DNA of 61,888 nt, counting the filler, from Sluysia triapertura (taxonomy: Eukaryota): the NCBI GenBank assembly GCA_046118255.1. It is 5 parts of 5 records of this genome, joined end to end, with 100 filler letters (N's around TTAATTAATTAA, not from the genome) between each part and the next. Parts side by side here need not be neighbours in the genome. Positions count along the whole stretch, not along the records: positions 12,555 to 23,563 come from JBJNIA010190230.1; 4 more parts are not named here. One strand, written 5' to 3'. This document shows positions 10,138-41,207 of the stretch, one piece after another (the first letter of the stretch is position 1; each line of letters begins with the position of its first letter). The notes below the pieces were generated by a model that made no database searches, was not told the DNA's origin, and saw nothing but the letters and a program-made list of their open reading frames with translations. The translations under genes and the position numbers were made by a program.

Positions 10138-11475
10138 TTAAATATTCTTTATTGTAATTATATCGTTAGGCTTCAAATTTAATGTATAAGGAGTATCAGT
10201 TTCGTGAATCAATTCTGAATTAGGTGTTCTAAATTCTAATTGTGATACTAAAGGAACACCCATTCGAGCACAAAAAGTTTTCATTGCCTGACTCATTTTA
10301 GTTAAATATCTAGTTTTAAAACGTAGCTTTTTCCCCGTCGTTTCACACTGAAAATAAAGATTTATATGACAATTCTTAACTTTAGCGATTGATTCATCAA
10401 AATGATCTGTATCTAAGCAAACGAGGTATTCATTATTTAAATTGTACTCGACAATATTACTAGAGACATTTTTCGGTTTTACTTTAGACTCAACTATTAC
10501 TTTTTTATTATATTGCGACATAAAATTTTGATGTTCGATAGAATCAATACTAGCTTTTCTATGACACATAAGAAGCTCATTATCAATATTAGATTTTAAA
10601 TTTTGAATCGTCATCTTTGGTGCTGCAGGTATATCACCTTGAATATCATTACAATATTTTGATATACTTTCATTATCACTTATATCTTTAAGTTTATTAA
10701 ATTCGATCAATCTTTCTTTTTCATAATTATCTATTACAAGTTTATTGTACAATTTAGTATTCTGATTCAAATTTTCATTAATATTAATAAATGTATCTTT
10801 ACTATGCATGTTCTCTGAAACTGAATTACTTTTACAGTTAAGTATTGCCATATCATTAGCTTCCACGTTAATAACTTCATTACTTCTTGTAAATTTATTT
10901 CTTTTGATATCATAAGAAACCTCAGTTACTTGATAATTATCTACTTTTAAATCACACTCTTTTTTATTGGAAGCGTTTGAATTTTGTTTAAATAATTCAT
11001 TATTTTTATCATTTTCAAGTGAAGAGTTTTTATCATGTGATGATGTGTTTAATTTTTCATTATAAATAAGTAATGGATGTGGCAAAACTCGATGAAATTG
11101 TTGATCATAATTATTCAAAATTGGGTTTGCTATTTCTGTGATTTTTTTCATCATTAATGTTTTATTAATTCTCTCAAGGAAAGCTTGCTCATCATTTGTT
11201 GATTTTTTAAGTTTTGAAAATTTATTTGAATTATTAGAATTTTGTATGAGATTACTGGAAAATCCTTTATTTGGAACTAATTTAAAAGAATGATTTCGAA
11301 ATGATTTAAATGTGCTTATTTTATTTCTAGGAATCAGTTGTAAATCTTGATATGTGCTCTCTGAACAATATAAAGGTATATTCTTATTACCAATTAAATG
11401 TAATCCAGTATTTTCAGAAAAATTTTTTGAATTTTCCATATTTACACAATTGAAATCTCGAAATACATTATGCAT
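10138..11475 (-). CDS. Protein with long Asn/Lys/Ser-rich region and C-terminal SUMO-like domain (Rad60/Esc2/NIP45 SLD type); possibly a terminal exon
   Basis: Uninterrupted 445 codons in AT-rich DNA; C-term HINLYFQCETTGKKLRFK...KMSQAMKTFCARMGVP...LEF...IHETDTPYTLNLKPNDIITI matches the SUMO pattern; no terminal GG; frame stays open upstream of the ATG to ~11506. Confidence 0.8.
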   Translation of the reverse strand: MHNVFRDFNCVNMENSKNFSENTGLHLIGNKNIPLYCSESTYQDLQLIPRNKISTFKSFRNHSFKLVPNKGFSSNLIQNSNNSNKFSKLKKSTNDEQAFLERINKTLMMKKITEIANPILNNYDQQFHRVLPHPLLIYNEKLNTSSHDKNSSLENDKNNELFKQNSNASNKKECDLKVDNYQVTEVSYDIKRNKFTRSNEVINVEANDMAILNCKSNSVSENMHSKDTFININENLNQNTKLYNKLVIDNYEKERLIEFNKLKDISDNESISKYCNDIQGDIPAAPKMTIQNLKSNIDNELLMCHRKASIDSIEHQNFMSQYNKKVIVESKVKPKNVSSNIVEYNLNNEYLVCLDTDHFDESIAKVKNCHINLYFQCETTGKKLRFKTRYLTKMSQAMKTFCARMGVPLVSQLEFRTPNSELIHETDTPYTLNLKPNDIITIKNI

Positions 11476-12454
11476 CTCAGTGTAACTATCTTTATAATAT
11501 TCTTCGCTTTTATATAAATAAAAATGATTTTATTTATGAATACAATATAAATAAATCAATTTTATATAATTAAGGTAGGTTAAAATAATAAAATTCTAAT
11601 TACCATAATTTTTAAGAATCCTCAAAAACTAGGAAACTTAGGATTTTCAGACGGATTTTTCTACAGAATAAGAAATTTATTCAATTTGATTTAGTTTCTT
11701 TTGTTAAATTAGCATCATTTTTTAAGGTTTGTGTTAAATCTTTGGGCTATGCACACTTTGATGCGGTATAGTAAGATTAAAATTTTCATGGTAAATATAT
11801 CCTTGTTATCTGACGTTGAGTAACTTTCGCTATATGTAAAAATAATAAAAGTGAATGTGTATGCTTGAAATAAAGTTTAATATGTAATGTACATAAAAAT
11901 ATTGCTGGCTATGTATGGAAAGTTTTTACTTGAAATATAAGTGCATGATATTATGCGTTTTAAAGCTTAATTTTTCTACAAAAGCGTTATTGAAGTCAAT
12001 AATTTCGCTGCTGCAAAATCTTAACTCCAACTTATGCTTTTGTAAAATATGGATATGCAACTATAAACTGAATTTGAAATCAATAATTAAGAAAGAATCA
12101 ATAATTGAAGACAAAGTGTTTAAAAGTAAGTATTTCAGGATCAATGAAGAAATTCATTTTATAATTTTCAATAATAAAAATAACCACAATGCTAAAATAA
12201 ATTATAAAAATTGAAAGGTTTTATATAGATTCACAAATAAATGTGGAAGAAAATTTTATTTGTGTTGTATAAAGAGAATATCAAATATTCGAAAATTCAT
12301 TAATAAATATATGTAAAAACTATTTGTGCATTCATTGATTTTAATAATAGCTTATTAAACAATATTCTGTACAAAAAGTGCGAAAGTTTCAATTAAAATC
12401 ATGATTCCATATTATTCCAGTTACCAGTAACGGCAAGAAAAGAATTCAAAATCA

Positions 12455-12554
12455 NNNNNNNNNNNNNNNNNNNNNNNNNNNNNNNNNNNNNNNNNNNNTT
12501 AATTAATTAANNNNNNNNNNNNNNNNNNNNNNNNNNNNNNNNNNNNNNNNNNNN
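12455..12554. other. Assembly linker N44-TTAATTAATTAA-N44 (also 23564-23663, 37505-37604, 48956-49055)
   Basis: Identical 100-nt spacer four times, with stops in all six frames. Confidence 0.98.
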
Positions 12555-13740: not shown

Positions 13741-14170
13741 TGTGAGAATAAGTAGAGATAATATAGAATAAAGTAGAATTTTAACGTGAGTCCACCAACG
13801 TGCTAGGTTTACCAGTTAGGGCTAACCGTTGGGTTTTTCTATACTTGAAAGGATTTTCACTAAGGAAAATATCTTAGTGTTTGCTTAAGTTTACAAATGC
13901 TTTAAAGTCAAGGTCTGTGTATATCTAATTAGTTTTTCAAATTTTATAAGGACAATTAAACCTAGATCTGGAGGAATTTAGTTATAGTACTGAAAACCGT
14001 TTATAATTTTAATTATAACAATACAAGTCGTTTATAAATGATTTTATGGACAACCTATTCAAAGGATTTGTGTTTGAGATAAATGATTTTGCGTTGTCAT
14101 AATTATACTTTGACTGAAAACTTTACTTGTACTGATAAATTTAGTAATTTTAAAACTATGAAAATTAATA
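13741..14170 (-). repeat. 3' LTR (left)
   Basis: Starts TGTG; agaataaag...gtgagtccaccaacgtgctagg...ccgttgg shared with 22289-22593 and 41208+; inner boundary uncertain. Confidence 0.7.
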
Positions 14171-14449
14171 TATTAATGTATTTTAGTTTTTTCAGTTATC
14201 CTTAACTTAGTTATAGTGTTCTTATTTGGTTTATAACTTATAGTTTCCTTGATAATGGGTATAACTAAATTATATGGTTGTGTGATTGACCAATTGTTTA
14301 TTTTTATTCTTTCGTTAGCATTTAATATCCATGTGTATATAATTGGAAATGTTAACTCAGGGTAATAGTTCATCATAGTTGTTTGTTTCAGTGGAATTAA
14401 TTCAAGAACTGTTTTTCTATTAGTCCCATAATTTATTATAATTGAGGTA

Positions 14450-17140
14450 TTTGACAATGGTTCCATTATATCCATTGCAGTAAATTTCATTGGTGAGAGT
14501 GGTATAGGCATATGTTTTAGTGGTAATTTTGTTTTTATTCCTGTATTCTTTCTTCTACAGCAAATAGCACAATTCTTACACCATTTTTAATGTCTTCTTC
14601 TCTACTATCCCAAAAGTATTTATTTTTGATTCGTGATAATTTCTTTATGTTGATAATTGTCCATATAATTTCCCATCGTGATATTGAATTAATAATGGTG
14701 TTATTAAAGATTTTGGTACAATTGTCTTCCACTCATCTTTTGAAACTCTAAAACATAAGATACCATCTGTTATTGATAACTTTTTTGCTTGATCTTCATT
14801 TAATAATCTTTTTGCTATTGCTTCGAATGCATCTTCATCTTCTCTTTGATGTTTTATTATTTCTTTTAGTTCTTCCATTTTCCCTGAAATTGACATTTTT
14901 TGTATAAAATTTATTTTTTCTTGTTCATCAGTATTGGTTAATCGAGACATAAAATCAGCACCATTATTCATTGATCCTGGTTTATATATTATTTGTAGAT
15001 CGAATTCTGCTAACTTGTGAACTATCTATTTAATCGACTTACTTCTATGGTTGTAGAGATATGTTAATGGTTTATGATCTGTATATATAAATACATTCTG
15101 TCCTAATAAATAATATGTAAATAGTTTACATGCATATACAATTGCTAAACATTCCTTTTCAATAGTTGAGTAGTTCAATTCGGCTTTATTTAATCTTCTA
15201 CTTGCATATGCTATTACTCCTAAATTTTCTTTATTTCTTTGTCCCAGAAATGCTCCTGTTGCAAAATTACTAGCAATTGCTGTTAATATAAAAGGTTTAC
15301 TCATATCTGGGAACATTAATAGAAAAAGTGTAGCTGTTAATCTTTTCTTTAATTCAATAAATGCCTTAGTTTGATCTTCAGTTCATTTAAATGTCACATT
15401 TTTCTGTGTTAACATTCTTAAAGGTCGAGCTATTTTTTCAAAATATTTTACGAATTTTCTATAATAATTTGCCAATCCTAAGAAACTTTGAATCTCCTTT
15501 ACATTATCTGGTGGTGGAAACTTTACAACTTTTTCTATATTTTTTGGATTCGGTTTTATGCCTTTATGTGAAACTATGTGACCTAAAAATTCAACTTGTT
15601 TTTCAGCCCATACACGTTTAGTTGGCTTAATTTTCAATCTCGCTACTTCTCAACTTTTTAATGTGTTATCTATATCAACTATATGAGTATAGAAATCTTT
15701 TGAAAATATTATGATATCATCAATATAAACCATAATATTTGTAAAACCGGATAATACGAAATTCATACATCTTTGGAATGTTGCCCGTGAGCCTGTTAAT
15801 CCGACCCACATTTATATAATTCATATCCGCCTGAAAATGCTGTTTTATGTTTATCTTTTTCCGCAATTTCTATTTGCCAGTAACTACTCTGAAAATCTAA
15901 TGTAGTAAAATATTTAACGTTTCCTAATTTATCCAACATCATATCGATTCTTGGTAATGGAAACACATCTTTTCTTGTTATTTTGTTATTTTTCTCTAAA
16001 ATCTGTACAAAATCGCATAGTTCCGTCTTTCTTTTTAACTAACAACACTGGTGATGATAATGGAGAAAAAACTTGGTCTAATAACTCCAGCCCTTTTCAT
16101 TGTATCTATTTTATCCTTCATTTCTTGTTGATTACATAATGGAATTCTATATGGTTTATTTCTAATTACTTTATTTTCTCTTAGTGGAATTTCATGTTTT
16201 ATTATGACAGAATTTCCAATATCGTATTTATTTCTCGCAATTGCCCGAGGCTATCTATAAATGACTTTGTATAATGTTCCTTTTTGTCGTTTAGTTAAAT
16301 TTTTAATTTTTATTTGTATTTCTTCATAATCTTCTTCATCTTAAATATTTCTTTGTAGGCTTATCATTCGACACCATGTTTATTTGTGTTTGTAACTTAT
16401 AATTAACTATTTCTCCTAATTTTTCACCTGCATATAACCATATTTTCAGCAGTATAATTTATTATTCTTATAAGTATATTTCCATCTGAAAATTGAATCA
16501 GCAATGCCTATGTTAAATTTTTCTTAATTATTTTTTGAAGCTATATACATTATTTGACCATTTCTTAGACTGCTGGTTTTTTCTGGTGTTATACATTCTT
16601 TTCTCTTAAGTAATCAACGTGGTTATTCCAAGGTAACATCGTCATCATCTATTGAACTCTCAGTATATGTATCCATTAACCTTGCTATACTAAAATCTAA
16701 TGAAACTCATTTTAATTGTGAAAGTACATTCATACCTAATATCATATCTTCCGGACATTTTCTAATTACTTTGCATTTTATTTCAATTTTATTTTGTTCA
16801 ATTTCACGTAATATTTTTAATAATCCTAATATTTCAATTTCGGCGCCAGTTACTCCTGTCATATATGAGTGTTGTTTAGCTAAATTATTAAGTTCCTTAG
16901 TAGTTAATAATGATTCACTTATTAAGGATGCAACTGCTCCTGTATCTACCAATGCAGATAACATTCTTCTATTAACCATCATGCCCACCATAGGTTTTCT
17001 TGCGCTATTATAATTATTATTTGCGCATATAATATAAACTAAATTTCTTTGAGGAGGTTGATATAAAATTTGTTTTTCTTCTTCATTATTACCAACTTGT
17101 TCTATATTAACTGTTTGTGGAGCTATTTCTTCGGTTTGTT
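14450..17140 (-). pseudogene. pol: Gypsy pol: aspartic protease, RT, RNase H, integrase zinc finger; integrase core deleted
   Basis: ALVDTGA...MILGMN (PR); [45 protein letters not shown] (RT); YASRRL...NYSTIEKECLAIV...TDHKPL (RH); HDGKLYG...WCKNCAIC, then AMDIMEPL before homology stops. Confidence 0.95.
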
Positions 17141-18320
17141 TTTAAAGGATTTAATTGAGTATGAGCGTGATAATGTAACAGAAACTAAGCTAAAAATGGA
17201 AAACAGCCATTTATTAATTTCCAAGTGAAACCTGATATTTTATAAATACCTACTACTGAAAATATTTTAAGATCAATGACTTTACTTATTACATATATAC
17301 CTATTAAACCAGAAAAAGCTTGACCTATTACTAGAAAATTTCCCAAATTTGTTTTAAAGTATTATGTGCTGCTTTCTGAAAGTGATCGGGTCCTAATAAT
17401 AATTCAAAATTTATTTTACCATCTTTTTCTACGATTGCTTTATCGACTATATTTGTAAGTACTTTTGACCTTTTAATAGGAAATAGTATTTCATGTCTAG
17501 CTGCTTGAATATCTTCGTTAGAATAAATTCCTCATCTTGGAATATTTTTGGTAACTGAAAATTTTAATTTCGTTTTTAATTCTGTTAATTTCTGAAGTTT
17601 TAACTTGGCTTCTATTCGATAAAGATATACACAAATTACATAAATTTTATATTCTGGAGCCATTACATTTGAACAGTATAATGTTTTTGGTTTAAGTTTA
17701 TAAGTTGGCATAATGATTCTAGTCACTGGTTCTAAATAAGATTTTTGATTTTTGTATATTATTGGTAATCCATTAGTACATTTATTTTCTTGTCTTATTT
17801 GTACTTCTACTTTTCTACATTTGTATGGATATAAAACTTCACCCATTAATATACCAAAAACTCCTTCTTCTAAAAGAAGTAATGGTGCCTCTAAATCTGG
17901 GTCTGTTATTGCTACTGCTAATTTAGTTCTTAATATTTCTTTGTTTATTGACTGTCTACCTATCATGGCTTGATAAACTTTTTTCAATGGCATTAGTCCT
18001 AAAAGGTAATAAAAATCAATTTTATTGTTAAAATACGTATTTAATTCTAAATTTTGTGTCTGTTCCTTTCTTGGCTTTTAGTATTGTCTTTTCGGATAAA
18101 TATATTCCTGGTAATTTGTTTATGTAATCTCTTTTCCACATCTGATTACTGATTTCTTTGATACAAATATTAGTCCATCTTCTTCTTTATTTGCCATTAT
18201 AATAGTTGAAGTTTCTATTTCATTAAGTCTTTTCTTTCTTGTATATCTAAATTATCTTTATAAATTTGTTTTTTGTTTATCTCTTCTATTGCTAATTCAT
18301 CTTCGTTTTGATACATAAAT
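17107..18320 (-). pseudogene. env: env, C-terminal part: chuvirus/gB-like class III glycoprotein including TM region
   Basis: RCG...NLELNTYFNNKIDF; GEVLYPYKCRKVEVQIRQENKCTNGLPI...YLEPVTRII...C; GIYSNEDIQAARHEILFP; IWGNFLVIGQAFSGLIGIYVI (one frameshift), all in the order seen in chuviral glycoproteins. Confidence 0.85.
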
Positions 18321-18326
18321 CTCGAG

Positions 18327-19990
18327 ATTAGTTTAAATTTAATTTGTTTCAAAAATATTAATGGACAATGAAATTTTTCTAATTCTCATATTAATATAGA
18401 TTCACCAATACCACACTGGTTTGATCACTCTTACAAAATGGTATAGATATCATAGTACCTTTATCTAAGTTAAAAATTTCGTTAAAAGATTTTAAGCTTA
18501 CTACATAGTGCGGTGCCACTCCTATCTCAATAAATTCGTTACCCTCAAAAAATTTATAGAATTCTGTATTCAACCCATTCATTTCACTATTACTTTCCCA
18601 CATTAACATAAAATATAAATCATACTCTCCAAGCTCCAAATTTCACACTAAAATGATTTTTATCAACATCATAGTTCCTCCCTCTCTGATTACCATCCAC
18701 ACCATCATCATCACCTTTATCATCTTTCTTTATTTTATTACTTTTTCAATTTTTAGTATTATTATTATTTTTATAATTTTTATTAATTTTATTATTTTTA
18801 TAATTTTTATTAATTTTATTATTTTTATAATTTTTTAATTTTTTACTACTTTTATTATTTTAATTACTTTTATAATTATTATTACTTTAATTATTTTTAT
18901 TATTTTTTTATTATTTTGAATATTATTTTATTATTTCGAATACTCATTTGCAAAAATTAGTGCAATATACTTCAAAATCTATGTTTATGCTAAAAATTTT
19001 AGTATAACTTTAGTAAACAAAATCGAGATGAATAATATAAGTAGCAAACGGGATGAATTGTTAGAAGCCCTCTTCAATGAGGTTACTAATTCTTCTGAAC
19101 AAGTTATGAATGAAGTCGAAGGTAAGATTTTACTGTGGTATATTTTGAAGAAAAGTCTATCCATAATGTGCCAGTAGATCTAAACATTGGCGATTTAGAA
19201 AAATTATTAGATCCAAAATTTTAATCCACAAATTTTAAATTACTTTAAATCTGCATTATTCAATCCAACGACTGATATTACATGTGAAAGTGAAGTCGAA
19301 GGTAAGCTAAATCATTTTTAACTTACTGTAGTGTATCTTAAAGACAAGTTCACTCATAATCTGCCAGCTGATTTTATCATTGGTGATGTAAAGAAACTAT
19401 TACAATCAAATTCAAACGTTCTCGCACTAAATCACGAATGGACCTTACGCGGGATATTAGTTGTTATTATTAATCTAGACGATTTAATTTTTATTAAATC
19501 TTATAAAGAAATTGTTGTTGCTTTATCTCTAATTCAAACTGATCGTCCATTTAAAATGGAAGCTGACATTAAAGTCTTTGTGGCCAGCAAGGTTGTATTT
19601 GATTTGAGTTTTCATTTTGTATCATGCGCCGACAGCGTGCTTTCCCTGTATTATTATCATTATTATTATTATTGTGGTAAAATTTTCAACTTTATTTTTG
19701 AAATAGATAAAATAGATATATTTGGAAATTAAAAAGACTAGACATGACCTTAAGTCTAAGTTTTATTTTGAATTTTTAGCTCTTGTAACGGACCTTAAGT
19801 CTAATTTTTGAGAACAAATTCAAACTAATTTAATTAATGTATTTTTTAAATTATACTCGTTTCATTTCATAAAACCTTTGTTAACTACTAATTTTATTAC
19901 ACAAGAGTCACAATATTCTACCACTCGATCACATCACATAGATTTTCTGAGCTATAACATAGGTTTACTGAGCTATAACATAGGTTTACT
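18327..19990. mobile_element. ~1.6-kb insertion interrupting env
   Basis: env homology stops at ~20005 and resumes at ~18320; imperfect inverted repeat 18327-18356 / 19804-19829; 27-nt and 21-nt tandem repeats inside. Confidence 0.6.
19028..19732 (+). pseudogene. Decayed gene with two tandem (180-bp period) ubiquitin-like-fold segments
   Basis: gaagtcgaaggtaag at 19112 and 19292, followed by FTVVYFEEKSIHNVPVDLNIGDLEKLL and LTVVYLKDKFTHNLPADFIIGDVKKLLQSNSNV. Confidence 0.45.
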
Positions 19991-20004
19991 GAGCCATAAA
20001 GTAA

Positions 20005-20486
20005 ATTTTTCTTTCGTATTCTATTGAACCTCGCTCGTACGTACCATCCATTAATACGTTACCAGCGGTTCTAACATTATAAATTATTTTCTCATTATTT
20101 TAAATTTTTAATCTGTCTCCTTTCTTTAAACTTAAATATCCAGTTTCAAAAGCGTCACGACAATTGTTAGGCGATATTTTGAATGGTTTTAATATATTTG
20201 ATATATAAATAATCGAAGAGTGACTGTGGTGTCCGCAATACCAAATAACTACGAATCTTTTTACTAAACATTCTCTAGCCAGTGTTGTAACCAAATTTCC
20301 TTCTTGATAAACATTTAATACTTTCATATCTTTTATTTTGACTCTATTTGGTCTTGATTCGGGACAATCTTCAGTGTCCGATAAAGAAAACTTTCTTCCA
20401 ATTTGGAGTTGGCTAAAGTCAAAAGCCTTTACAGCATTGGTTTAATGAATTCCAAATAATGCTAGTAAAACAATTATAAATAACAT
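20005..20486 (-). pseudogene. env: env, N-terminal part with signal peptide
   Basis: MLFIIVLLALFGIH*TNAVKAFD...FSLSDTEDCP...VYQE...ARECLVKR...WYCGHHSHSS...CRDAFETG...AGNVLMDG; YCGxHSH is characteristic of chuvirus-like glycoproteins. Confidence 0.85.
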
Positions 20487-21341
20487 ATTATTTATTGAAG
20501 TTCCGAAATGTAGATATGATTCATTTGAATTTCCTTTATTGTTAATTAACTTCAATATCGTGTTAAACGTTCATTTGAAATATTCTTTTCTTCTTTTTCT
20601 TTAAAAATGTTCTTCTAACCACCTAGTTTTTCAATCAGAGTACTTAAGTTCTTATCAACAAAGTTTATGACTTTATCTCTCTTTTCTTTAGTTAAAAGTG
20701 CTGCTTTATTACATTGAAATATTATATAAGCCATTATTATTTTAAGTCTTTCTTTATTAATTCAGACATTGATTTGTTTATTTATTATGGCTTTGTACCG
20801 GCCGTTATCTATGTAATCATCTATATCCGTATTTTGATTTTTTTTCATCATTTTAATTATCTTAAATATTGCATTTTTTTATTGTTTTAATTCAGGTAAT
20901 AATATCTTATATTTATCAAAGTTTGAAAATTTATTAGATACTAGTGCATAAATTATACTTTTGGTATTTAATGTTTATTCTAAATTTTTATAAGTAATTT
21001 TAGTTAAATCAATGGGTTTTCTATGTCTTGGAGTTGGGATTATTGCTTCATCTTCATTATCTTTATTTTATTGGTTTCTTTCTCTTCAGTTTCTATATGT
21101 GGATTTTTATTTAAATCTATTACGTAATCAGGTTTTTCTTAAAAATCATCTTCATTATCATTAGTCATATCTATTATTTTACCATTACCTGTACAATCTT
21201 TATTAGAATTATTTTCATTATAATTATCTCCCATTAATTCTCTTAATAATGAAATGGGGTTCTGTCTAAATCAACATCATTGTCATCATTTATTAGTTAA
21301 TCTAATTTTCGTAAATCATCTGAAGTCATTGCAGAAGTCAC

Positions 21342-21551
21342 TCATGCTTCCTCATGGTTTCCATTCATTGATAGATAACCGTAATAATTTATATAATCAT
21401 TAGGTGATAATTTCCTGTCATAAAAATATAAATCAACATCAGTTATAGTAGAGATATTTGACTTAAGTAATTCTATTATATCTTTTACAATTGAAGTTAC
21501 TGTAAGTTCCATAGTAATATTCAAAGCATTATTAATAATTATACTTATTTT
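21342..21551 (-). pseudogene. Ubiquitin-like (beta-grasp) segment in the gag-env spacer
   Basis: KISIIINNALNITMELTVTSIVKDIIELLKSN...LYFYDRKLSPNDYINYYGY aligns by eye with ubiquitin ITLEV...TIENVK...LIFAGKQLEDGRTLSDYNI. Confidence 0.55.
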
Positions 21552-21867
21552 ATTAATTCTTTAGGTTTGTCTTTTCTTTCTTTTTGTCCTATTTTCCTTA
21601 GTAATTTTCATTCATTAGTCTTATATAAACTATCTTCCTTACTTAAAATAGCTAATATTAAATTATTTCTTATCCATTTTGTATATTTAGTTCTAAATTC
21701 ATTTAAATTTCCATTTAAATCTTTCTACTTGCCATATCTGATAAAAATTCATCAACTTTTAGATAAGTTTTTTAATTTTTATTTCTGGGGTATCTATCTT
21801 TTTATTAGTTGATATTATTATTATTACTGATTCCATTTCTTCTGTGGCACTTTAATACGCATCTTCT

Positions 21868-22041
21868 TCATCTAATTTCATATTCAAAAAGAAAATCGCA
21901 AAGATCTTCCTCTGCTTCATTAAATTTTCTCATTTCAGGTAATGCCATTATCGAGTGCATTTCTCTGGCTAGTTGAGCCACATATTCCTTAAAATCATTA
22001 GGTAGTGTCATAATTTCTTAGTTTTGATCTGTAATCGTCAT
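21868..22041 (-). pseudogene. gag: gag N-terminal (capsid start) fragment
   Basis: LPEMRKFNEAEEDLCDFLFEYEIR resembles the PxFxG..ED..DFL..YE start of Gypsy capsids; first ORF after the PBS; remainder of capsid not seen. Confidence 0.6.
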
Positions 22042-22260
22042 GTAGTACAATTTGTATATCTATTTTTCTTAAAATTTAGTTAATCTGTTAATAATCAACT
22101 TAGGTAATAATTTTGCTCAAGTTTAACTTATTCTTAATGAAATCGTAATCAAATTCTTTAATCAAATTCTTAAATGCTTCAAATTTATAATCAATTCTTA
22201 TTTACAGGTCCTCAAATACTTAAATCTTTATATTTATTTTTAAATTATTTCAATACTGGT

Positions 22261-22277
22261 CCTCACTCTGGGCACCA
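22261..22277 (-). promoter_or_regulatory. Primer-binding site, tRNA-Lys(CUU)-like
   Basis: Minus strand TGGTGCCCAGAGTGAGG versus canonical TGGCGCCCAACGTGGGG (13/17), 11 nt from the LTR edge. Confidence 0.7.
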
Positions 22278-22288
22278 GTTTATTCTGC

Positions 22289-22593
22289 TGTGGTTTTTCC
22301 TAACCTTACAGAATAAAGCAACCTTATAAGTGAGTCTACCAACGTACTAAGCTAGCCGTTGGATTTTAAATAAAAGAGTTTTGATTGAAGATTAAAAACT
22401 GTTTAGTACTTACTAGCTTAGACGTAAAATTCTTTTAACTTAATGAAATATGAAGGTTATAATGAGATTTTGCGGAAATCATATGAAAAGGATTTAATTC
22501 AATTGATTTTAAGAGATCAGAATGAAATTCTGATAAAACTTTAATGCACGGGCGATTTTATGATTTTGAAACTATATAAATTGCTTAATATCA
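22289..22593 (-). repeat. 5' LTR (right)
   Basis: TGTGG...ATATCA ends; homologous to 13741-14170 and 41208+. Confidence 0.75.
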
Positions 22594-24099
22594 AAAACAA
22601 AACTTTCTTTTTTAAATAATTATGTATTAAATATTATTGGTCAATAAGTTAATAAATATTGATATACAGCAATAATTATAAATAAAGTTAATTTTTATAA
22701 AAGGGAAGTTTAAATGTATTTTGCGTGAAAACCGTTAAATGTTTTCAATATCTTTATAAAACAAAATCTAAGTATATTTTTCGTGGAATACTTATTAGTA
22801 TCAAAATCTTACAAAATAAACTAACGTATTTTAAATTATTTAAAAACAGAAGAACTCTTTATATGAATATCCTCTTGGAAGAAGACGATAGAATTCATCC
22901 GTGTACTGGATAAAAAACACTTATAAATATCGATTTCAAATATTGTCGCTGTTAACTGTATGATTTTTGAGTAAATTAGTATACATTTATATATGTTTTC
23001 ATTGGCCTTGGCCTTACTTCAATAAAACAAAATGATATTTTATACTATTAATATTTTATTACAAATATTTACATTATTCAATATTTTAAAATAATATTAA
23101 TTATTACTTACGTTACTTTCTTATTAAAATATTATATTTAATCCAAATATTTAAATTAAATCCAAGAATAAATGATTAAAATAAATGATTAAAGCAAATC
23201 AATAATTGTTAATGCACATATTGTCAAAAATGAATAATACGTATTGTTAATAATAATAAATGCGCACACAATAACATATTATCACATAAAAACTAATAAC
23301 TGCTTGTAGTGACCTCGTCATTCGGTATCAATCACAATTCATCACACAACATTCACTATAACTCATCTCACAAAGTTCAACACACTTCATCATTTAAAAA
23401 CGATACTTATATACATAAACTACTAAACGAACTATTAAACTCATTCAAAAAATAAACGTTACCATCTCATTTAATCATTATGAACTATTATTATTATTAT
23501 GATTAACATCTTTTCAAAATTCAAATTAAAGTTATAAATTTTAACTATCATGAACTATTATTANNNNNNNNNNNNNNNNNNNNNNNNNNNNNNNNNNNNN
23601 NNNNNNNTTAATTAATTAANNNNNNNNNNNNNNNNNNNNNNNNNNNNNNNNNNNNNNNNNNNNTATGTCAATTATAAACTCGTTAGAACCTCTATTTTTC
23701 TAATACTGCTTATGTAAAATTGTTGAGATTGCCCAACTGTGGAACAATAAATGAGAACGGAAGAGGTGGAATTGAAAAATTCAGGAAGAATTCGTATAAA
23801 ATTATGGCAAGGTGGGATAAAACATTTTTAAAGTAAGAATAATGAAGATGAAAACATCTATAGTCATTTTGGTAATTGAAGAATACCTTGGAGTTTCAAA
23901 GACATTGTAGAATGTCGAACCCATTGGAAAAAACTTGAGAGTTGTCAGAAAAACCTTTAACTTAAACTTAATTATTAGTAATATTAAAGATAAATTTGAT
24001 GTATTAATAATTAACATAAAGAAGTTGAAAAAGGATTCAGAATGGTAAAAGTTAAAGCATCTATAACCATTTGAATGCCTTCTAAAGTAGTAAACAACT

Positions 24100-24516
24100 T
24101 CAAAACCTTAATAAAACCTTTAAACATAAAGTGAGATTAAGTCTGAAAATATTAATTAATTTATTTAAGAAAAATAGCTTTTGTGAATAACGTTTGAATG
24201 AAGAATGTTATGTCAAAATTGTAATTGTGTATGTATTTGTTTTCAAAAGATATGATTTCATCAAAGGTAAAGAAAGCCTTAATTTTTAGAAAAGTCAAAT
24301 TTTAATTACATTTTAATTATAGAATGTTGAATTTTTCACATTTAGAATAATGGAAGTATGAAGAATAGAATATGGGATCTAGAAGTGAGTTTGAAATGTT
24401 TGTGAAGTGGTTTATATGAGAATAAGAATCTTAAACATTTTTCATTAGAAAATTAAGTTTTAAAAATTGAAAATGAATTAGATTCTAAAAAATAAAGTTA
24501 AATTCATTTTTTTAAT
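24100..24516 (+). repeat. ~400-bp dispersed repeat, copy 2
   Basis: Aligns with 925-1326. Confidence 0.85.
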
Positions 24517-26248
24517 GTTTTTGTAAAACTTAACCTATGGAAAAATATTTTTGAGCAGGGTCCGTGTAGTGTTCAGCTCATACATAAACTACTAACACAG
24601 ACGATCACAAACATTCACCACATATTACACCAACATATAATAATCTAAATAAAATAAAATATTTCTTTTAGTAACTTAAATAATATATAATATATGTTAA
24701 TGTAAACGGATTATAATATATTTAAACTACAATAACTTATTATATAATGTTACTTTTAGTCCGCCGTGATCACCTTATCCAACTCCATCAACATTGTATA
24801 AATTTCCACACCCTTTCTTGTTGTTACTATCATTCTTATTATTAATATTAGTATTATTATTGTCATTATTATTACTATTATTATTTTATGACATGTTCTA
24901 AATCGTTAATGCTTTTGATCGTCATTCTTAATCTAATTTAAAAACTGAACACATATCATAAATGGATGTATTGTTATTAACACTAACACATCCATCTAAG
25001 TTCATGCTTACAAAAAAAAGTTCCAATTTCAATTTCTAAGCTTCAAATAATAAATTAATATCATTTAAGACCAACAACAAATTTAATCATTCGAGATATA
25101 AAAGAATTTTAATTTTTCAATAACGCTTTATTTTTTGAATTTTTAATCTATTTCAGTCTACTTACAGCAATAAATAAAGAAAATAGTAGTAAATAAATTT
25201 ATTAAAATTCTATTTTTAAATATGACTCAAGATAAAAGGATGTGTTTAGTAAAAGTTTCAAATGACAAATATTCTAACAATTTTATATATATACGCTGTG
25301 TATTCTTTTTTCGTTAAAATTATTTCGTGCAAAATTATTTTTCTACATATTCGCCTATATTATAGGTTTTAAGTTCACAAAAAAGAATTTTACAATATCT
25401 TAATGGTTTTATGTAACTAACAGTTCGATTGTTATAAGTAGATATTCTGAACAAGCTTCAGTGATACTAAAACATACTTTGGAATTGTACTTTTGTTAAA
25501 GAATGTATTTAAGGAATTATAATTATTTAATAAATGTTAGAAATTGTTAAAATTTATTTACTTATAACAATCAACAGTAGTAATTATATAATTTATTGTG
25601 TTTAATTGAATTCTAGTATGGCATTACTTAAAATTATGAATATAATAAACTAATTAATGCAAACATTTTTTGGATGAGAAATGTATACAAGATTTTCTAT
25701 TAACGGAATTTTTTTCGAAAGTTTTTAAACGATTATTCTTAATAATTTGTTGTGTATTATTATTATTATTTTTATTATTATTGTTGTCTTTATGATTATT
25801 ATTATCATTATTTTTATATTTTTTTGTTTTAATTTTGCGAAATTATTATTAGCTATATAGTTCGAAGGTCGAACCAGAGATAAAGGTATCAATTTAAAAT
25901 ATTTCAACATTACAATTTAAAATTATTCAGAAAAGTTTTCAAGAGTTTATGTTAACAATGATTCGCGATTGTTGTAGTATCTATCAAATAGTTAGCCAGA
26001 CGATTTCGGAGTTTAATTTGAGAGATGGGAAGTGTCGGGTCATCTTGGTACTGCCATGGTTGTAATAAATTATTCTGCATTGAAGTTCAACTCAGATACA
26101 TGTGGATCTAAACGTATTTACACGTCTTTGAAAAACAAATTATTAGATATTGTCGATTCGACCTTTATGCATCCAGTTATGACAAATACACTTATATGTA
26201 TATAATGAAGCTGGGATTACCCAAGATAATGTACTGCCTGTAAATACA

Positions 26249-30247: not shown

Positions 30248-30785
30248 GTTCATAATCATGGTGTCATTAACACATCCGCATTATTGCTGTATTCACTAAC
30301 ATCCTGGGTAGCTGGATTTGTTAGTACTCGGTTTTATCAGATGCTAGAAAATACACATCCTGGTGTAAACAGTATGATATCATCCTATAAGTTATTTTAA
30401 ATTTTATTTTGGAACAAGTGTAATATGAAATTCAATCTGGAATTTCATATTATTACTGATTTTATAGCTTTTATAGCTTTTATATTAGAAATATGCATTT
30501 TATTTGCAGATCTCGAAGTTGGGTAAGAGTAGTCAATCTCGTTAGTGCTCTCTTTACACTGCCTTTAGCTCTGGTATGGTTTCTGTGTAACAGTATCTCT
30601 ATCATGTATGGGACAACACATTCAATGCCAATATCAACCATTCTTCTACTGGTGTTTATTTGGTTGTTAGTAGGATATCCACTAACTATCGCTGGTGGTA
30701 TACTGGGTCGTAGAACTCAAGTTCGGTTAGATACATCTGGTTGTAGAACTCGAAATATTCCTAGAGAAATACCGACATTACCATG
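30248..30785 (+). CDS. TM9SF1: TM9SF1-like nonaspanin, two internal exons (30248-30390, 30510-30785)
   Basis: VHNHGVINTSALLLYSLTSWVAGFVS.RFY and WVRVVNL...MPISTILLLVFIWLLVGYPLTIAGGILG...CRTRNIPREIPTLPW; tttcag/tttgcag acceptors, GT donors, phases agree. Confidence 0.92.
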
Positions 30786-32539
30786 GTTAGTTTCTTTTAG
30801 AGGTTTTTATAATTTAACTCAATTTTCTAATGAGTTGAGGAATGGAGAATAGGAAAGTACATCATGTGTAATACGTATCCACTTAAGAATTTATATACAA
30901 AATTATATTGATGCGTATATTGATGCACCATATTTATATGTGAAAATCAAGTAAATAGTTCATATGCATAAAAAAATTTTGCACTTAGTTACTAACAAAA
31001 CTAAATTGTGAAGGCTTGAGAAAATACAAGATACTTATGTTGGGTAGAGTGTGATTAAAATTTAATTCTCATAAATTTATAAATTGTTAGAATTTAATTT
31101 TACATTTATGTCTTGATTTTATGTGATTTGAGATGATATAATATGATGTTGTAATTATGTTGAAATATTGTCAGTGACTCGAATTTGTATAAGTTTGTTA
31201 AGGATTGGTCGAATGACTTTGGTGTTCTCTTAATAATTATTAATCTAGTGTAATTGTATGTATTGTAACGAAGAGAAGAATTAAGCTTAATCGAGTTTGT
31301 TGATTTAAGTTTATTCACAATTATTATTAGATATATTAATTTCAAGATGTCATTTAATTCTTCAAAAAATTCTATGTTATGCACGAATAGCTCAAATATC
31401 TTAAGATTGCTGTGACAATTTACATTATTTCCTACTGAATTCATTCAAACGGGCTTAGTTTACTCACTAAGGTAAAAACAACAATAAAATAGTTTATCTT
31501 CCATCTTCTAAGGTAATATGTTGATCATTGGATGCATATAAAATAGAATTTGACTTGGATACCAAATGGAAAAACAACATTAGATTTAGCTGTTGTGTCT
31601 GGTAATCGCAAATCTGAATGCTTTTTATTGTTAGCTCGTAATAATCTAAGTGATGCAGAAATAGGGTTAATAAATGTAATTATTAGCAATATCTAATATT
31701 ATATAATGTATCGAATTTCATACAAATGATTACGCAACAACATTAACACAAATATTTTGATATTGTCAAAAAAATTTAAATAATTTGTTCAATAATAATT
31801 AAGCTTTGTCTGATTTGGTATTAAACACCATCAGATTCCAATAAACTATCTTCTAATTTTTGTTAAATAATCTTTCACAGATTTATATTCAATTGTGTTA
31901 TTCGTGCGCTAAGTTGAACGTTTTCGAATGTGACTTTTTCTACATTTTCAAGTAACTCAATCACTTCTTTGTCCTAATAAGGTTTAGAATTTAATTATAT
32001 CGTGACTTGAATTGTTTTATTGCTAATGTAAATGGTTAAGTGATTGAATTTGTTTGTTAAGTAGCAGATGGTTCTTGAATGTTTAAAATTTTGAACATTC
32101 TTACTAAAATGTTTAGAATCAGGTAATGTGAGTGAGTTTTGAAGTGTTCAGATTTTATTAAAACTTTAACTGAACAATTATGAATATCTTACTGGGTTCG
32201 CATATAATCTAAGATTTATACCTCACGGAAGACTTAGTTATAAGATTTAATGAGTCAATACTTCGAAAGATTCCTTAATCTTAATACAATAGTCCTTGTA
32301 TTATAATGGAGGGTCTGTAACTTATTCTAAAGAATTTATATTTTCCTTATAAACACATCAATTACTTTACAATGTGACTTTTAACGACAAAACTCAAGTC
32401 TCTAAGAAATATATTTTAAAATAGGTTTATATAACAAAAATAGATGCAAATAATATACAATGATATCCCATTATATAATAATATATTCAATAGGATTTCT
32501 CCTAAGTTTAATACAATGAAAATTTAAATGTGATTTTAA

Positions 32540-33564
32540 CCCAGGTGGATACTTGGGCCTTGAAAATTAAAAGTATTTTACGTAGATTTTAACACAGTCA
32601 ATCGCAGTGAACTACTTAATATAAATAGCTTACGTAATCACAAAGAAAATTGATCCAAATAAGGATTCCAAATATAAACTTCAGATGCAATTCCGAATAC
32701 TCCTTGTGCGGATAATAGCCAATTGTGTCACCGACCGAGTAATAGTCCAAAGGATTTTGATAATACCAATCACGATTTATAAAATAAAATTATCCTTGTA
32801 ATTGCGCGGTAATAACGTCTTGTATACTTTACGTGCAAGTGTCTCAATATCATCAATATCCTTAGCGTCTGCGATGTCCGAATCTTTAATGTCTTGAATG
32901 TCTCTGAGGAAATTCTTTATGCGCAGTCTAGGTTTAATATTGATATTTGTGTGATGTTTAGAATATGGCGTACAAGAAAGTTGTGTTATGCGAGGACGAT
33001 TCAGAAAATCAAAAGCGTGCGAATACGCGACAAAAACCAACCAATCCTCATCATAGCCAGACATGGGAGGGACGTGTGTAAAGGACATCCCATTTTGCCA
33101 ACGCGCCAGATTGATAGTGTTGTCTTCATACAAATTTGGCAGAAACGATTGAAAGTCAGACAGTTGTAAATGAAAAAGTAAGGCTACAAAAGTAGGGTAT
33201 TTGGTTGCTTCTATGATTATATTACATTATATTATGTAAATTCGTAACATGCATGGAAGAAAAACTATGTACTCGGGTAAAGAATGGTGCTCCGGTATCT
33301 ATTAAAGTTACTTTAACCACTCTTCTAGCGATGACTAAATAAAGGGAATTAATAGAATCAGGAACTTGACTAAGGCCGTCCAAGGTAATAAAAGGAGAGT
33401 CAGGTTTCAATGAGAATATGTGAGTAGCCAGATTTACATTTAGTTAAGACTTCAAGCTATTAGGAGTAGAGACAGTCACTAAAAAACGCTGGTGTGATGT
33501 TTTCATGGCAGTACTTAATGTAGACATAAAAGTTCTTCTGCTGATTCAGTAGTTTGGCTTGCAT
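32540..33564 (-). pseudogene. Paralogue B of the DEDDh-fold pseudo-exonuclease gene, frameshifted
   Basis: MQAKLLNQQKNFY...ATHIFSL...SFLPNLYEDN...WLVFVAYSHAFDFLNRPRITQLSCTPYS aligns along its length with 35942-37179. Confidence 0.8.
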
Positions 33565-35693: not shown

Positions 35694-35941
35694 TAGGTAA
35701 CATATCTGAACATATTGTAATAGGATCCTTTAAGTCGTTATTTATGTAATTTTCATAGATAATCCACGAGCTGAAATTAAGTCTGGCTGGTTTCAGACAA
35801 GCAAACTTGGCATAAATATTTTGGTTTACTATTTTAACTTTTACTTCATTATCGTTATTATAAAATTCAAAGTGTTCTAATTACTAATTAATTATTTGTA
35901 AAACTGTTTTATTGTTTTATCCTTTTTTTTAGTCTATAACA

Positions 35942-37179
35942 ATGTACCCATCAGATACAAAAAGGCTGAGTCAGGTGAAACCCTTTTATACTTCCTTGAA
36001 CTCTTATTGTGACGAAACGGATCTTTCCATCTATTTCCCTAACTGCCACGTTACTCCAAATAAATTCCGAAGTGAGTTCGACTTTGATGTAGCGACTCAC
36101 ATTATTCCCCTTACAACTGAAACGCCTCATATTACTGTCAACGATTTAACGAATAGGCCACCTTATTTTCGTACTTTGCATATTGCCGTTGGCCGCGGAG
36201 CAGTAAAAGTCGTCGCCACCTTGAACATTCCTTTGACTTTTCGAGTGGACGCCATGTCAACAACTTGTCTCTCCGATATTAATATGCGCTGTGTAATATA
36301 TATCGAAGCATTAGAACTACCGTCTTCACTCGCACTTCTATTCTTACTGCCACACCGAGAATTGTATTCTTTCCTACCATGTTTATACGAAAAAGATCTT
36401 GATAATGTTGCTAAATGGGCAGAGGGTTCCTCTTTTACGCACAGACCTCTGTCTATGACGAGGAACGTCTCTTATTTGTCGCATGTCATCACGCTGTTGA
36501 TCTATCAGATAAACCTAGAATTATCCAATTGGCGTGTACGGCGTATAGTAATCAATATCATATGGAGGCCAAGATCCGCCCTTATTGTAGACTATCTAAC
36601 TTTCGTACCGACGTACACGGTCTCAAAGAAGATGACTTGAAAACCGCAAGTGATCTCTATGAAACACAACGGTATTTTTTGGCCAAGTTTCACGATAAGA
36701 TCTTGGTTACTTTTAATCCCAGCTTGGTTCTAAAAACGCTACATATTCCTTTTGGATGGGTCCGAGGAATCATCAATTTAAATAATCATAACCTTATTTC
36801 TATGCTTGCCCCAAGTATAATGGCTCGATCTCGGCAGACTTTTAAACCCTTATATCCTATCTTGCCGAGATTTGACTTTGTTAAAATGGCTACTGAATTG
36901 GTCCATCTTTTCAACTATATTAGGGAACATGATCTATCTTTTATTCCTAATTGTAACTTACCTCCTCTTTCTCTTTTTCAACCTGGCCCAGCCGATATAA
37001 TTGGGGACAATATGATAACGTGCCCATCACCACCGACGTCACCTTGTATCGACAATTCTCGACGGATAACCGGCACAACATCGCCTGTTTGCACGTTTCC
37101 TGGGACGAATTTCGTAGAAGATTGGGAATCGACCGACTCCGACAACGACGACGACAATACAGTGGACCTTGACAATTAA
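35942..37179 (+). CDS. Paralogue A: N-terminal unknown domain + DEDDh exonuclease-like domain without catalytic residues + Pro/acidic tail; one frameshift at ~36445-36450
   Basis: PRIIQLAC...IRPYCRLSNFRTDVHGLKEDDLKTASDLYETQ...KILVTFNPSLVLKTL follows the REXO4/ISG20/DnaQ pattern (VKP...TDYRT.VSGI...L....EVVQ...RILVGH...DLKVL). Confidence 0.7.
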
Positions 37180-39256
37180 CCACATAACTCACTTTTTATA
37201 ACACTAAATGATTAACATTTTTATGAAAGACTATCCTATTCTTATCTTCTAATTCATTCTTTTTATGATTTGATGACAAATCTTCCTATAATGGGATGTA
37301 TTTGTAAGAATGTACATAATTTTATTTGTATTTTTTAAAAAATTTGTAGTTTTTAAATTTATAAAAATATTATAAAATTTATTTAAAATTGTATATTATA
37401 AAAAATTACCAATTTAATTATATTAAAATAAAAATTATTATTATTATAAATTGAAAAACGACATAAAAGAAACTTCTAGAAAGAAGTTTATTTGAATAAA
37501 TCAANNNNNNNNNNNNNNNNNNNNNNNNNNNNNNNNNNNNNNNNNNNNTTAATTAATTAANNNNNNNNNNNNNNNNNNNNNNNNNNNNNNNNNNNNNNNN
37601 NNNNATTTTCATTTTTGTGTAGCATCCTGGCACTTTTAGATAATTCTCTAAAAATCATGTTGGCACTCAAAGGGTTAATTAACATTGGTAATAAGATAAA
37701 AATAATGTACATAATCAGTTTTATGTTTAGTGATACATAAATATACTATTATTTCGTGTTCGATCATCGGAGTTATGATGCAAAACTATTCTGGTAACTT
37801 TACTAATAATGGTTTTGGCTTTATTCGAAGAACTTATATAACTAACATTAACATATGAACCAGGTTTATCCGAATCCCTCGTTAGAAAAATAACAATTTC
37901 ATTAGGAGAGAATCTTTTATTAAATGTTCGTCTTACCCGTTTAATTTCTATACTTTATATGCATTATAAATAGGCCAATTTAAAAAGGAAACATAGATTA
38001 AAATACTCAGTACAATCTTGACATTTATTAATTTTATTGTATTAAAACCTCTGAAACAATCATGATTTAAAATGTTGTTAGAACATATAGCTTCTAAACA
38101 TTTATCGTTTCCTTTTGTAATAGATCCGTAATATGTTTTTTCAGTAAATATTACGCATATGAAATACAGTTACTGTAATAGCCAACATTGATCTTTTAAT
38201 CGTTAATTTTGCAAGTAGCAATTCTTAGGCAATATTTAATAATAAGTTTAGCAGTATCAAATTTTTATATCGACAATTTAAGCATAAAATTATTACTTTA
38301 TTATCATTAATAATACTTATATTAATAGTAATAAAATAATAATAAAAATAACCTTAGCCTTGAAAATTCAATTTTAATCCAAGTTTAGAAAGCAGTATAT
38401 AAACTTGATAATTTATAAATATGATACACACAAACAGTACTGAATCAAAAAATGCACACAATTATCTCAATTTTAAATCAAATCAAAATCATACAATATT
38501 ATCATCTGTACAACACCAAACAAGAAAATCTATAATTAATAAAAACCTTGAATTTGTTTTTATTAATAGGAATAACAATCCATTTATGATTTTTTAAACA
38601 AGAATTGCTCCAATAAATGCAATATCATAAAAGCCTTAATGTTGAATTTTTCTCTATAATATAAAAAGGTATTAGCTTATCGAATGCATTTTTGATATGA
38701 GTTTTAAAATTAGTACCTTCAGCTTTGATACGGTAAACTTAATTTTATTTATTAATTGCAATTCTAAACATTTAAATATGTTCTCATTAGGAGATACAAA
38801 TAACATTTAATTTTATTTGTGCAGTTTAATTTTAGAAAAAAATTTGTTTATTAGATTTATAAAACTATAAATGCACATTTTGTTTTATCTTTTGCTTTAA
38901 AATAACGTTACATTATTTTTGGGAATTCAAATAAAAGCATTTTAAAAATTAATCTAGCATCAAATTTATTTTTGGGCATCTATCTGACTCAGGATTACAT
39001 GAGATGGATTCGAAATTATTCTCGATTATTCTAGAAGGAATTATTCGTTAACACAAAGTATTATCAATAGCTTAATACAATTATCACCAAATTTATTTGC
39101 ACCATTGTAATAAAGACATCATAGTTATGATAAAATAAGTCATTAACTGATTTTTGAATGTTTGGAATAATTTTAATCGAATAAAATCGTACTTTATGTA
39201 TTAATAAGTGCGGTAATGATTTATTTTCTGAAACAAAATTACAATTTTTTATTTAA

Positions 39257-39437
39257 CCCCTTAACTCGCACACTCGAGTTAATTTGATTAATATATTAAG
39301 TTATTTGGTATTAGAATTAACTTGCGTTAGTTACAGAGGTGTCAACTACTAGTTATAAGACGCTTACACTAAAATATAGTTTAGTAAATAATGCAGCAAT
39401 AAAGAGTTTTTTTGAAAAAAAATTGAACGTTAAGGGG
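39257..39437. mobile_element. piggyBac-type MITE
   Basis: TTAA|CCCCTTAAC...GTTAAGGGG|TTAA; second copy at 48822-48955. Confidence 0.85.
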
Positions 39438-40759
39438 TTAATATAAATAATTGTTTTCAATAATTGTTTAAAATTTTAATAAAGTTCGATTTTATTCCAG
39501 TTGATAAATTTAATAGCAATTTACATTTTCATCTCATTTGTCTTCCAATATTAATAATAATAAACGCTTTACGACGAGAACATATACCACAAAGTTCAAT
39601 ATAATTTCAAGCATTATTATAATAAATCATTAAAAAATTCTTCAGTTAAATTTGTAGATAGTTTTCAAAACAGTTTAACAAATTTAACTAACATTATGCC
39701 TACATTATCATTAATTAATAAGTTATTTTAAAATAGCGTAGCAAAATCGAAAAGTATTATCTTTATAACGTAGCTACTTCACTCTGTGTATTACAAAATG
39801 TTAAATAATTACCACCAAAGTAGAATAATGATATAAATGATTGTTGCTTCTTTACTCAGAAATCTCAAAAATCACAAAATCAAATACTAATTATTATAAT
39901 TAATTTTACCTTTTACAATAATATTAATAAATTTAATACTTTCTATAGTAATTCTTTATTACTATCAAATCTAACACTAAACTCAAAATAATGTAAAAAT
40001 AACAATGAAACAATTAAGGCAAACAGTTCTGATAAATTTTCAAAATTAGTTATTATCAAACTAAACAAAGAATAGTTAATAAAAATAAAATAATAACCAA
40101 AGGTGACAAAACACAAAAATTAAATTACTTACTTTAAAAAGAATAATTTCAAGATTTTACATATAAATAAAATGGAGCCTCTCCAAAATCTATACAAATA
40201 TTATTACCTAAATTAAAGTCAAATAGAAAGGAGGATTTCCCAAAAATTACTAGGCAAGTTAAAAGGGAGATTCATATTAAAAAATTTTCAATTCTTCTTT
40301 TTTAATCAACAAATGGTACTTTTCCCCAAAACTAAACAAATTAAAAATTAAATTATTAATAAAAGTGTGTAAACCTCTAAAATATAAAAATTAAATTAAT
40401 AATAAGTAAAAATAAAAATGTTACCAAATACATTATCTTCATGAATTTTGATAAATATGGACCTTCTTATTGCGGATTATTTTCTTTTGACTTAAATTCT
40501 TAAATATTTCCTTTTATAATTTCTCGTCATCCAATCATTTCTTATTTTTTCATCAAACATTTTCTGAAACAAATCATTACAACAATTCTTTGACAATTAA
40601 ACCGACAATAATAATTTTGACAGTATTACATGTAACGGCCTGTCAAACTTTATTAGATAGAGAACACAAAAAATTGATTAATCCATTACCCTACTCGATC
40701 TATTTTTAATTAAATTACTTCTTACATTAAAATAAAATCATTAATATTGTCAACGTGCA

Positions 40760-41195: not shown

Positions 41196-41207
41196 AGTAC
41201 TTTATGA

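Follow-up and report, generated by a model that had tools for sequence, protein, structure and literature searches.

A decayed Ty3/gypsy element of Sluysia triapertura with a gB-type envelope gene between gag and pol, probably a compact relative of planarian Burro

The planarian element Burro/GYPSM1 encodes in one open reading frame (ORF) Gag, a ubiquitin-like (Ubl) domain, a BCL2-like domain, an envelope glycoprotein (Env), a protease (PR), a dUTPase-like domain, reverse transcriptase (RT), RNase H (RH) and integrase (IN) (Arkhipova and Yushenova 2019, PMC6431247, which cites Grohme 2018 and Jurka 2007 for the element). Its Env is a mononegavirus-like fusion glycoprotein, and decayed fragments are known in Dugesia japonica (PMC6431247). 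Errantiviruses of GAG-ENV-POL order with an env of the herpes simplex virus glycoprotein B (HSV/gB) type have since been reported from Nematoda, Bryozoa and Platyhelminthes, the flatworm elements being placed in RT clade E and IN clade Y (Chary and Hayashi 2026, PMC13524379, citing Sacco 2022). In Drosophila, enveloped errantivirus particles move the element between cells (PMC13524379). These gB-type elements belong to what the authors call ancient errantiviruses, for which an RNase H with a 'mini' bridge domain is described (PMC13524379). Here we analyze a stretch of 61,888 nucleotides from the assembly of Sluysia triapertura (hereafter the window), and find in it what is very probably one old insertion, no longer active, of a compact Ty3/gypsy element resembling Burro, that is, a GAG-ENV-POL errantivirus with an HSV/gB-type env.

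The window consists of five contigs joined by 100-nt spacers of N and has a GC content of about 25%. The element lies on the minus strand, wholly within one gap-free contig (12555-23563), and measures 8.85 kb between the ends of its long terminal repeats (LTRs), or about 7.4 kb when an insertion is subtracted, with parts deleted. Read along the minus strand, the order is LTR, primer binding site (PBS), gag remnant, env, protease, RT, RNase H, integrase N-terminus and LTR (Table 1). The gene order, coordinates and named motifs given in a first-pass annotation of this DNA were confirmed by the motif positions and by Pfam matches. Its assignment to Ty3/Gypsy with a gag-env-pol layout is supported by the pol order, the match to Ty3 RT and the location of env before the protease. 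The locus thus combines two LTRs and a PBS with an RT and RNase H of Ty3/gypsy type, the Ty3/gypsy order of PR, RT, RNase H and integrase (the last as its N-terminal part only), and the gag, env, pol order of the GAG-ENV-POL errantiviruses, although the gag trace is weak. The layout, whose novelty that annotation had implied, was already published (PMC6431247, PMC13524379). The annotation's further premise that gB/chuvirus-like class III envs are best known from BEL/Pao elements is at odds with the report of gB-type env as widespread in Ty3/gypsy (PMC13524379).

Table 1. Features of the element, listed in its 5' to 3' direction (positions along the window; CA, capsid; NC, nucleocapsid)
Feature	Position	Strand	Evidence and remarks
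5' LTR, ~316 nt	22278..22593	-	TG start; 3' end uncertain; aligns to 3' LTR (0/300 shuffles) and to solo LTR 41196-41517
Primer binding site	22266..22277	-	tRNA-Met(CAU) a slightly better fit than Lys(CUU); compared with 12-nt tRNA ends from the PMC13524379 supplement
gag capsid N-terminal remnant	21871..22012	-	tblastn to P0014, E 0.044 (restricted search); rest of CA and NC missing
Helical and ubiquitin-like module, decayed, weak	21363..21611	-	relatives' profile ranks first in window, 6/500 shuffles
Bcl-2-like domain, decayed, 3 stops	20600..20881	-	ranked first in window by a 5-relative profile, 0/500 shuffles
env signal sequence and N-terminal ectodomain	20007..20483	-	PF24664 3-153, E 2e-16; hydrophobic segment
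Insertion of ~1.45 kb inside env	18553..20000	.	21-nt tandem duplication at high-coordinate edge
env middle, C-terminal ectodomain, membrane anchor (spread over four frames)	17140..18552	-	PF24664 244-544 (E 4e-38), 544-607 (E 7e-5)
Aspartyl protease	16707..17033	-	PF13975, E 5e-8; DTG motif 65 codons past env anchor
Conserved PR-RT spacer domain, frameshifted	16384..16661	-	dUTPase-like position in Burro; profile matches (ranks 1, 3 and 4) in three consecutive frames
Reverse transcriptase, connection, RNase H, bridge	14648..16328	-	RT_RNaseH, E 4e-30; RVT_1, E 1e-10
Integrase zinc-finger region to first catalytic motif	14428..14645	-	tblastn to P0277, P0282 and P0164; remaining core missing
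Stretch before 3' LTR, possibly extreme C-terminal polyprotein tail	14042..14427	-	weak match to P0167 tail, E 0.012; no Pfam match
3' LTR	13741..14041	-	homology to 13762; CA end and candidate target site duplication at 13741

The element resembles Burro in several respects. The in-frame placement of Env after gag and before pol fits the order and spacing in the window, the single ORF being seen in relatives; a Ubl/SUMO-like domain followed by a BCL2-like domain before env corresponds to weak but correctly ordered traces; and the order PR, spacer domain, RT, RH and IN is shared. There are also differences. The window element is 8.85 kb long, with LTRs of about 320 nt and one protease, as compared with more than 30 kb for Burro (PMC6431247); no MATH, BIR, ankyrin or AAA domain was detected by Pfam in the window pieces scanned; and of the two or three CCHC knuckles in the gag of Burro, none is left in the window copy. 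We, therefore, file the element as Burro-like rather than as Burro, because it shows neither the giant size nor the MATH, BIR and ankyrin cargo. The idea that a Bcl-2 domain is new to gypsy elements was given up in view of the BCL2-like domain of Burro (PMC6431247).

With the elements of Chary and Hayashi the window copy shares the ORF order, a gB-type env that has a signal peptide and an anchor, and a Ty3/gypsy pol. By eye, the motifs of env domains I-II and seven of eight cysteine positions of Schmidtea errantivirus 1-6 (Platyhelminthes C1a) match the window, and the nematode env rows shown look far more distant from it than the flatworm rows (PMC13524379). That catalogue holds intact elements only, with uninterrupted ORFs and full RT and integrase, whereas the window copy is decayed, with interrupted ORFs and the integrase core missing. 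We found no mention of Bcl-2 or ubiquitin-like domains, Bcl being absent from the text and Bcl-2 and ubiquitin from seven supplements (PMC13524379). The window element is probably a decayed new member of the published GAG-ENV-POL gB-type group, of a kind that would work like Burro. Non-canonical nematode endogenous retroviruses, reportedly described by Sacco et al. in 2022, are also said to place env ahead of pol in a metavirus.

The pol region was assigned from motifs and profile matches. The protease carries DTGA at 16946 and RT carries YIDD at 15727, and PF17917 and PF17919 were matched. The closest solved structure to the window pol is the yeast Ty3 RT (E 4e-34), followed by what we take to be caulimovirus and foamy virus RTs. 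The spacer domain between PR and RT matches Pfam dUTPase in one of eight relatives, weakly (E 0.052), and its profile had no match in the PDB. The integrase zinc finger noted in the first-pass annotation is present, but the integrase ends just past the first catalytic motif.

For Pfam scans, minus-strand pieces were translated with X at stops. Three env pieces match PF24664, the Monjiviricetes fusion glycoprotein, in profile order, with YCGHHSH at 20240 and GEVLYPYKC at 17843, and the stretch from the env middle to the anchor is 37-42% identical to its 11 closest relatives. A search of the PDB with the window env by phmmer gave nothing useful, and a profile of 95 env sequences matched herpes gB only (E about 0.03). 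The AlphaFold model of P0003, a protein 39% identical to the window env (pLDDT 84.8), matched herpesvirus gB by Foldseek (E 7e-14), and all of the rows shown were gB. The PF24664 matches, the fold of P0003 and the hydrophobic ends together describe a gB-like ectodomain of class III, preceded by a signal peptide and ending in an anchor. The window env is a class III gB/chuvirus-type glycoprotein, as first annotated, the fold being that modelled for the relative P0003. The signal sequence, motifs and anchor of the annotated glycoprotein all stood, but the insertion of about 1.45 kb that splits it had gone unreported. The numbering of related Env proteins continues across this insertion, from residue 532 to 528-541 in P0006 and from 297 to 313 in P0001, leaving at most about 15 residues unaligned. 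The insertion had no Pfam match in six frames and no terminal inverted repeat; two short ORFs lie on its plus strand, and it also holds an AT-rich 9-nt tandem array as well as short direct repeats within it.

Evidence that env and pol belong together comes from relatives. A search with the window env piece found P0001, which is 40% identical and has env and proteases in one ORF. The first 759 residues of P0001 were then searched against the full library, and 23 long or extended proteins were chosen from the best 150 of 1,449 matches for a domain scan. Of the 23, 12 have env and then protease within one ORF, and five of these 12 extend to RT; env likewise precedes protease in P0001, P0151, P0153, P0169, P0277, P0280 and P0282. 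Ten proteins (nine clusters at 90%), including P0151, P0169, P0277, P0280 and P0282, carry env, PR and RT in a single ORF. The complete 3,735-residue ORF of P0277 encodes a Ty3 capsid (E 0.011), CCHC, helical and Ubl modules, a Bcl-2-like domain, env, PR, RT, RH and IN, and is collinear with the window from env through integrase. The closest RT-RH match to the window is P0166 (54%), which falls in the same 90% cluster as P0277. The distance from the env anchor to the protease, 65 codons in the window, compares with 60-320 residues in 18 relatives. In an env tree of 46 rows (the window and the 45 best long matches of 148), the window fell inside a set with 100% support; that set held all 16 env-protease fusions, and the stand-alone glycoproteins lay outside it. 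A reverse transcriptase phylogeny, which had been suggested as a check, was computed by a quick method from RT-RH (63 rows used of 123 kept); it placed the window with five env-before-pol proteins and three unlabelled rows (SH-aLRT 87). We, therefore, consider the locus to be one element, because ten polyproteins join env, PR and RT in one ORF, P0277 is collinear with it, and both the env and the pol tree place the window with such polyproteins.

One could envision instead that two unrelated elements are nested or fused here, with the env of a chuvirus-derived endogenous viral element or of a BEL/Pao (Anakin-type) element in or beside an env-less gypsy. The env family is indeed common to chuviruses and BEL/Pao, P0037 has DUF5641 followed by env, and the locus took at least one insertion. 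Dezordi et al. are said to have described in 2020 BEL/Pao elements with a chuvirus-like glycoprotein, reportedly named Anakin. Those elements share the glycoprotein family PF24664 with the window but carry env downstream as a separate gene, whereas the window env is upstream and its pol is of Ty3 type; the window thus shows neither a BEL/Pao pol nor an env 3' of integrase, and in the env tree the two sets fall apart. Identity with the stand-alone and BEL-type glycoproteins, which lie on the other side of that tree, reaches only about 25-29%, and the closest pol cluster carries a related env in frame. Collinearity with P0277 and P0282 largely refutes nesting. Taken together, the fusion ORFs, the collinearity with P0277, both trees and an env-to-protease spacing that agrees with intact fusions make nesting of unrelated elements very unlikely, as the first-pass annotation had argued.

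Other layouts did occur among the 23 scanned proteins (P0037, P0019 and P0144), all distant at about 23-27% identity. P0144 joins immunoglobulin (Ig) domains to a PF24664-family glycoprotein, and in P0019 the glycoprotein is joined directly to RNase H. No relative of the element was found among viral contigs. A metagenome contig (L001) holds a decayed env fragment, 32% identical; another (L002) was rejected as a false match to a ClpB-like gene.

The region between gag and the signal peptide had been described as a spacer. Such a stretch exists, but it holds weak Ubl-like and Bcl-2-like traces in the order of Burro. Profiles for gag, the helical-Ubl module and the Bcl-2-like domain were built from relatives only and searched across the whole window. 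The top match of the gag N-terminal profile was at 21909-21874 (1 of 500 shuffles), and the three traces lie in the order of P0277. The gag start first annotated thus survives as a short N-terminal trace, but most of gag is missing, and a CCHC motif, present in the relatives P0004, P0014, P0017 and P0277, is absent from every minus-strand frame of the window copy. The P0014 counterpart of the Ubl module matches Pfam ubiquitin (E 0.031). The domain directly before env in the relatives matches Pfam Bcl-2 in four of the five members aligned (best E 2e-5; those scores that were shown fell short of the curated cut-off), and 59 of its 60 listed PDB matches are Bcl-2-family chains (E 0.009-0.05). A model of this domain from P0014 (pLDDT 76.9) had Bcl-2-family proteins as all of its top 29 structural matches, with Z up to 9.9. 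The window piece alone had no Pfam Bcl-2 match and was not detected by pairwise BLAST, and the ESM Atlas offered no usable match for the Bcl-2 or Ubl regions. Between the end of the Bcl-2-like domain and the env signal sequence lie 30-60 residues.

The LTR pair named in the first-pass annotation is real, but old. Over about 290 nt the alignment has 189 identities, 63 mismatches and 63 gap columns, a score equalled by none of 300 shuffles, and the two LTRs are 75% alike; strict BLAST recovered a 44-nt core only. A 19-nt LTR core occurs three times in the window, where none is expected. A solo LTR of the same family (41196-41517, minus strand) lies on a separate contig, with no PBS behind it, and adjoins a copy of another repeat. 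A 5-nt repeat flanks the TG start (22593) and the CA end (13741), ends that were not independently fixed; two random 5-mers of the window match by chance in 0.3% of cases. We treat this target site duplication as a candidate only, because LTR homology ends at 13762 and several ends could be selected. By eye, the PBS differs at two of 12 positions from the end of tRNA-Met(CAU) and at three of 12 from that of tRNA-Lys(CUU) (ends per the table of Chary and Hayashi), so the original tRNA-Lys label is unsupported. No clear polypurine tract was seen, there being no purine run of nine or more in 14500-13750, and Rfam and ARAGORN scans had no match in the window.

Several of these results weigh against a single Burro-like insertion. 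Searched across the whole window, the upstream profiles reach E values of only 4.4 (gag), 1 (Ubl) and 0.14 (Bcl-2), which are weak traces; a Ubl-only profile did not rank the site among its top four; and earlier, smaller profiles for gag, Ubl and Bcl-2 were equalled by 47, 9 and 12 of 300 shuffles. The Bcl-2 Z-score falls in the range that the tool treats as ambiguous for helical bundles, and the Foldseek E value is just 7e-3. The RT-RH grouping comes from a quick tree and is under the 95% support mark. Finally, the solo LTR (80%) resembles the 5' LTR more closely than the 3' LTR does (75%). This last relation, together with the unaligned final 20 nt of the 3' LTR and the large internal deletions, could also reflect recombination between two copies of one family, the 5' and 3' halves deriving from different insertions or subfamilies, with the same layout and a flanking repeat that arose by chance. 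We think that this is improbable, given that the 5-nt repeat sits at the TG and CA ends and that about 1% stop codons would be plausible for an old single insertion with such LTR divergence.

The decay of the copy is extensive. Thirteen aligned segments contain 15 stops among 1,418 codons (1.1%; the other frames have 11.4%) and at least nine frame changes along them; most of gag and the integrase core were lost, and the env insertion was gained. One might consider that the element is young or active and that its breaks stem from errors in the assembly, which is very AT-rich and fragmented. In-frame stops in this number, kilobase deletions, an insertion and diverged LTRs go beyond indel errors, however, and other long ORFs of the window are open, so that this explanation is scarcely credible. 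The window copy is an old, dead insertion, and the words 'potentially infectious', used of the lineage in the first-pass annotation, do not apply to it.

How a living member of the family might have worked can be outlined from this architecture. Genomic RNA would be translated into one polyprotein, Gag-(Ubl)-(Bcl-2-like)-Env-PR-(dUTPase-like)-RT-RH-IN. An internal signal sequence would direct the Env ectodomain into the lumen of the endoplasmic reticulum, and the Env anchor would return Pol to the cytosol, so that Gag-Ubl-Bcl-2 would be cytosolic and each polyprotein would cross the membrane twice. Signal peptidase and the element's own protease would release the parts. Gag would package RNA and Pol, particles would bud with the gB-like trimer, and the trimer would fuse with neighbouring (germline or stem) cells, where reverse transcription from a tRNA-primed PBS and integration would yield LTR-flanked copies. 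The env signal sequence could act as the tail anchor of the Bcl-2-like domain, which would probably keep the producing cell alive. A later planarian study reportedly dealt with the anti-apoptotic domain of Burro1. The window copy has since been stripped of most of gag and integrase and has accumulated stops, frameshifts and the insertion.

The locus is a relic of an architecture that had already been published; it provides a further host record and links two papers that treat the same design under different names, Burro in 2019 and GAG-ENV-POL errantiviruses in 2026. Intact relatives such as P0277, P0282 and P0006 show architectural features common to many divergent elements. Two features of the relatives were not seen in PMC6431247 or PMC13524379, namely protease-like motifs numbering as many as six and, behind integrase in the same ORF, a membrane segment. 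Several protease-like domains per ORF occur in P0151, P0004, P0001 and P0002; P0151 (4,844 residues) has six motifs, ankyrin repeats and C2H2 fingers. A hydrophobic segment follows integrase in the same ORF in 10 of 12 pol-bearing relatives (P0002, P0006, P0015, P0151, P0164, P0166, P0167, P0277, P0280 and P0282), some of these relatives share an ectodomain-like region (Ig-like in P0280), and there could be a second membrane protein. P0015 has, by eye, an exonuclease-like stretch ahead of env. P0006 (HBK71150.1), an env-pol polyprotein, is filed under a Flavobacteriaceae metagenome-assembled genome, probably a mis-binned animal contig.

A TM9SF/EMP70 host-gene exon at 30490-30792 (plus strand, E 1e-20) identifies the host as eukaryotic. 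Its nearest proteins are 46-51% identical, and on this sequence the host appears to be divergent and poorly sampled. One sequencing run contains 0.26 of the words searched for and may be the source itself, and no RNA data set was listed as containing them. A tentative proposal, which we consider rather unlikely, places the host beyond flatworms, bryozoans and nematodes. The element would then mark a compact, short-LTR Burro-like lineage, and a polyprotein of Ubl, Bcl-2, gB-type env and pol would be a widespread design of enveloped virus rather than a planarian oddity, with an env signal sequence that would double as a viral Bcl-2 membrane anchor.

The remaining observations concern other parts of the window. 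A 463-codon open frame (10138-11529, minus strand) has a C-terminus that is SUMO-like by eye and had no Pfam match at E 0.1. Paralogous ORF sets at 32777-33226 (minus) and 35933-37179 (plus), 39% identical over 84 residues, lie in a stretch of higher GC and had no Pfam or PDB match; they may resemble a degenerate DEDDh exonuclease. The artificial 100-nt spacers (12455-12554, 23564-23663, 37505-37604 and 48956-49055) are runs of N around a 12-mer with stops in all frames, and the contigs on either side of them are not true neighbours. Repeats are common to contig ends (1-114 with 37303-37406, and 39320-39443 with 48816-48955), and an unrelated dispersed repeat of about 450-500 nt is present in three copies, 68-78% alike, at 896-1394, 24074-24518 and 40691-41205.

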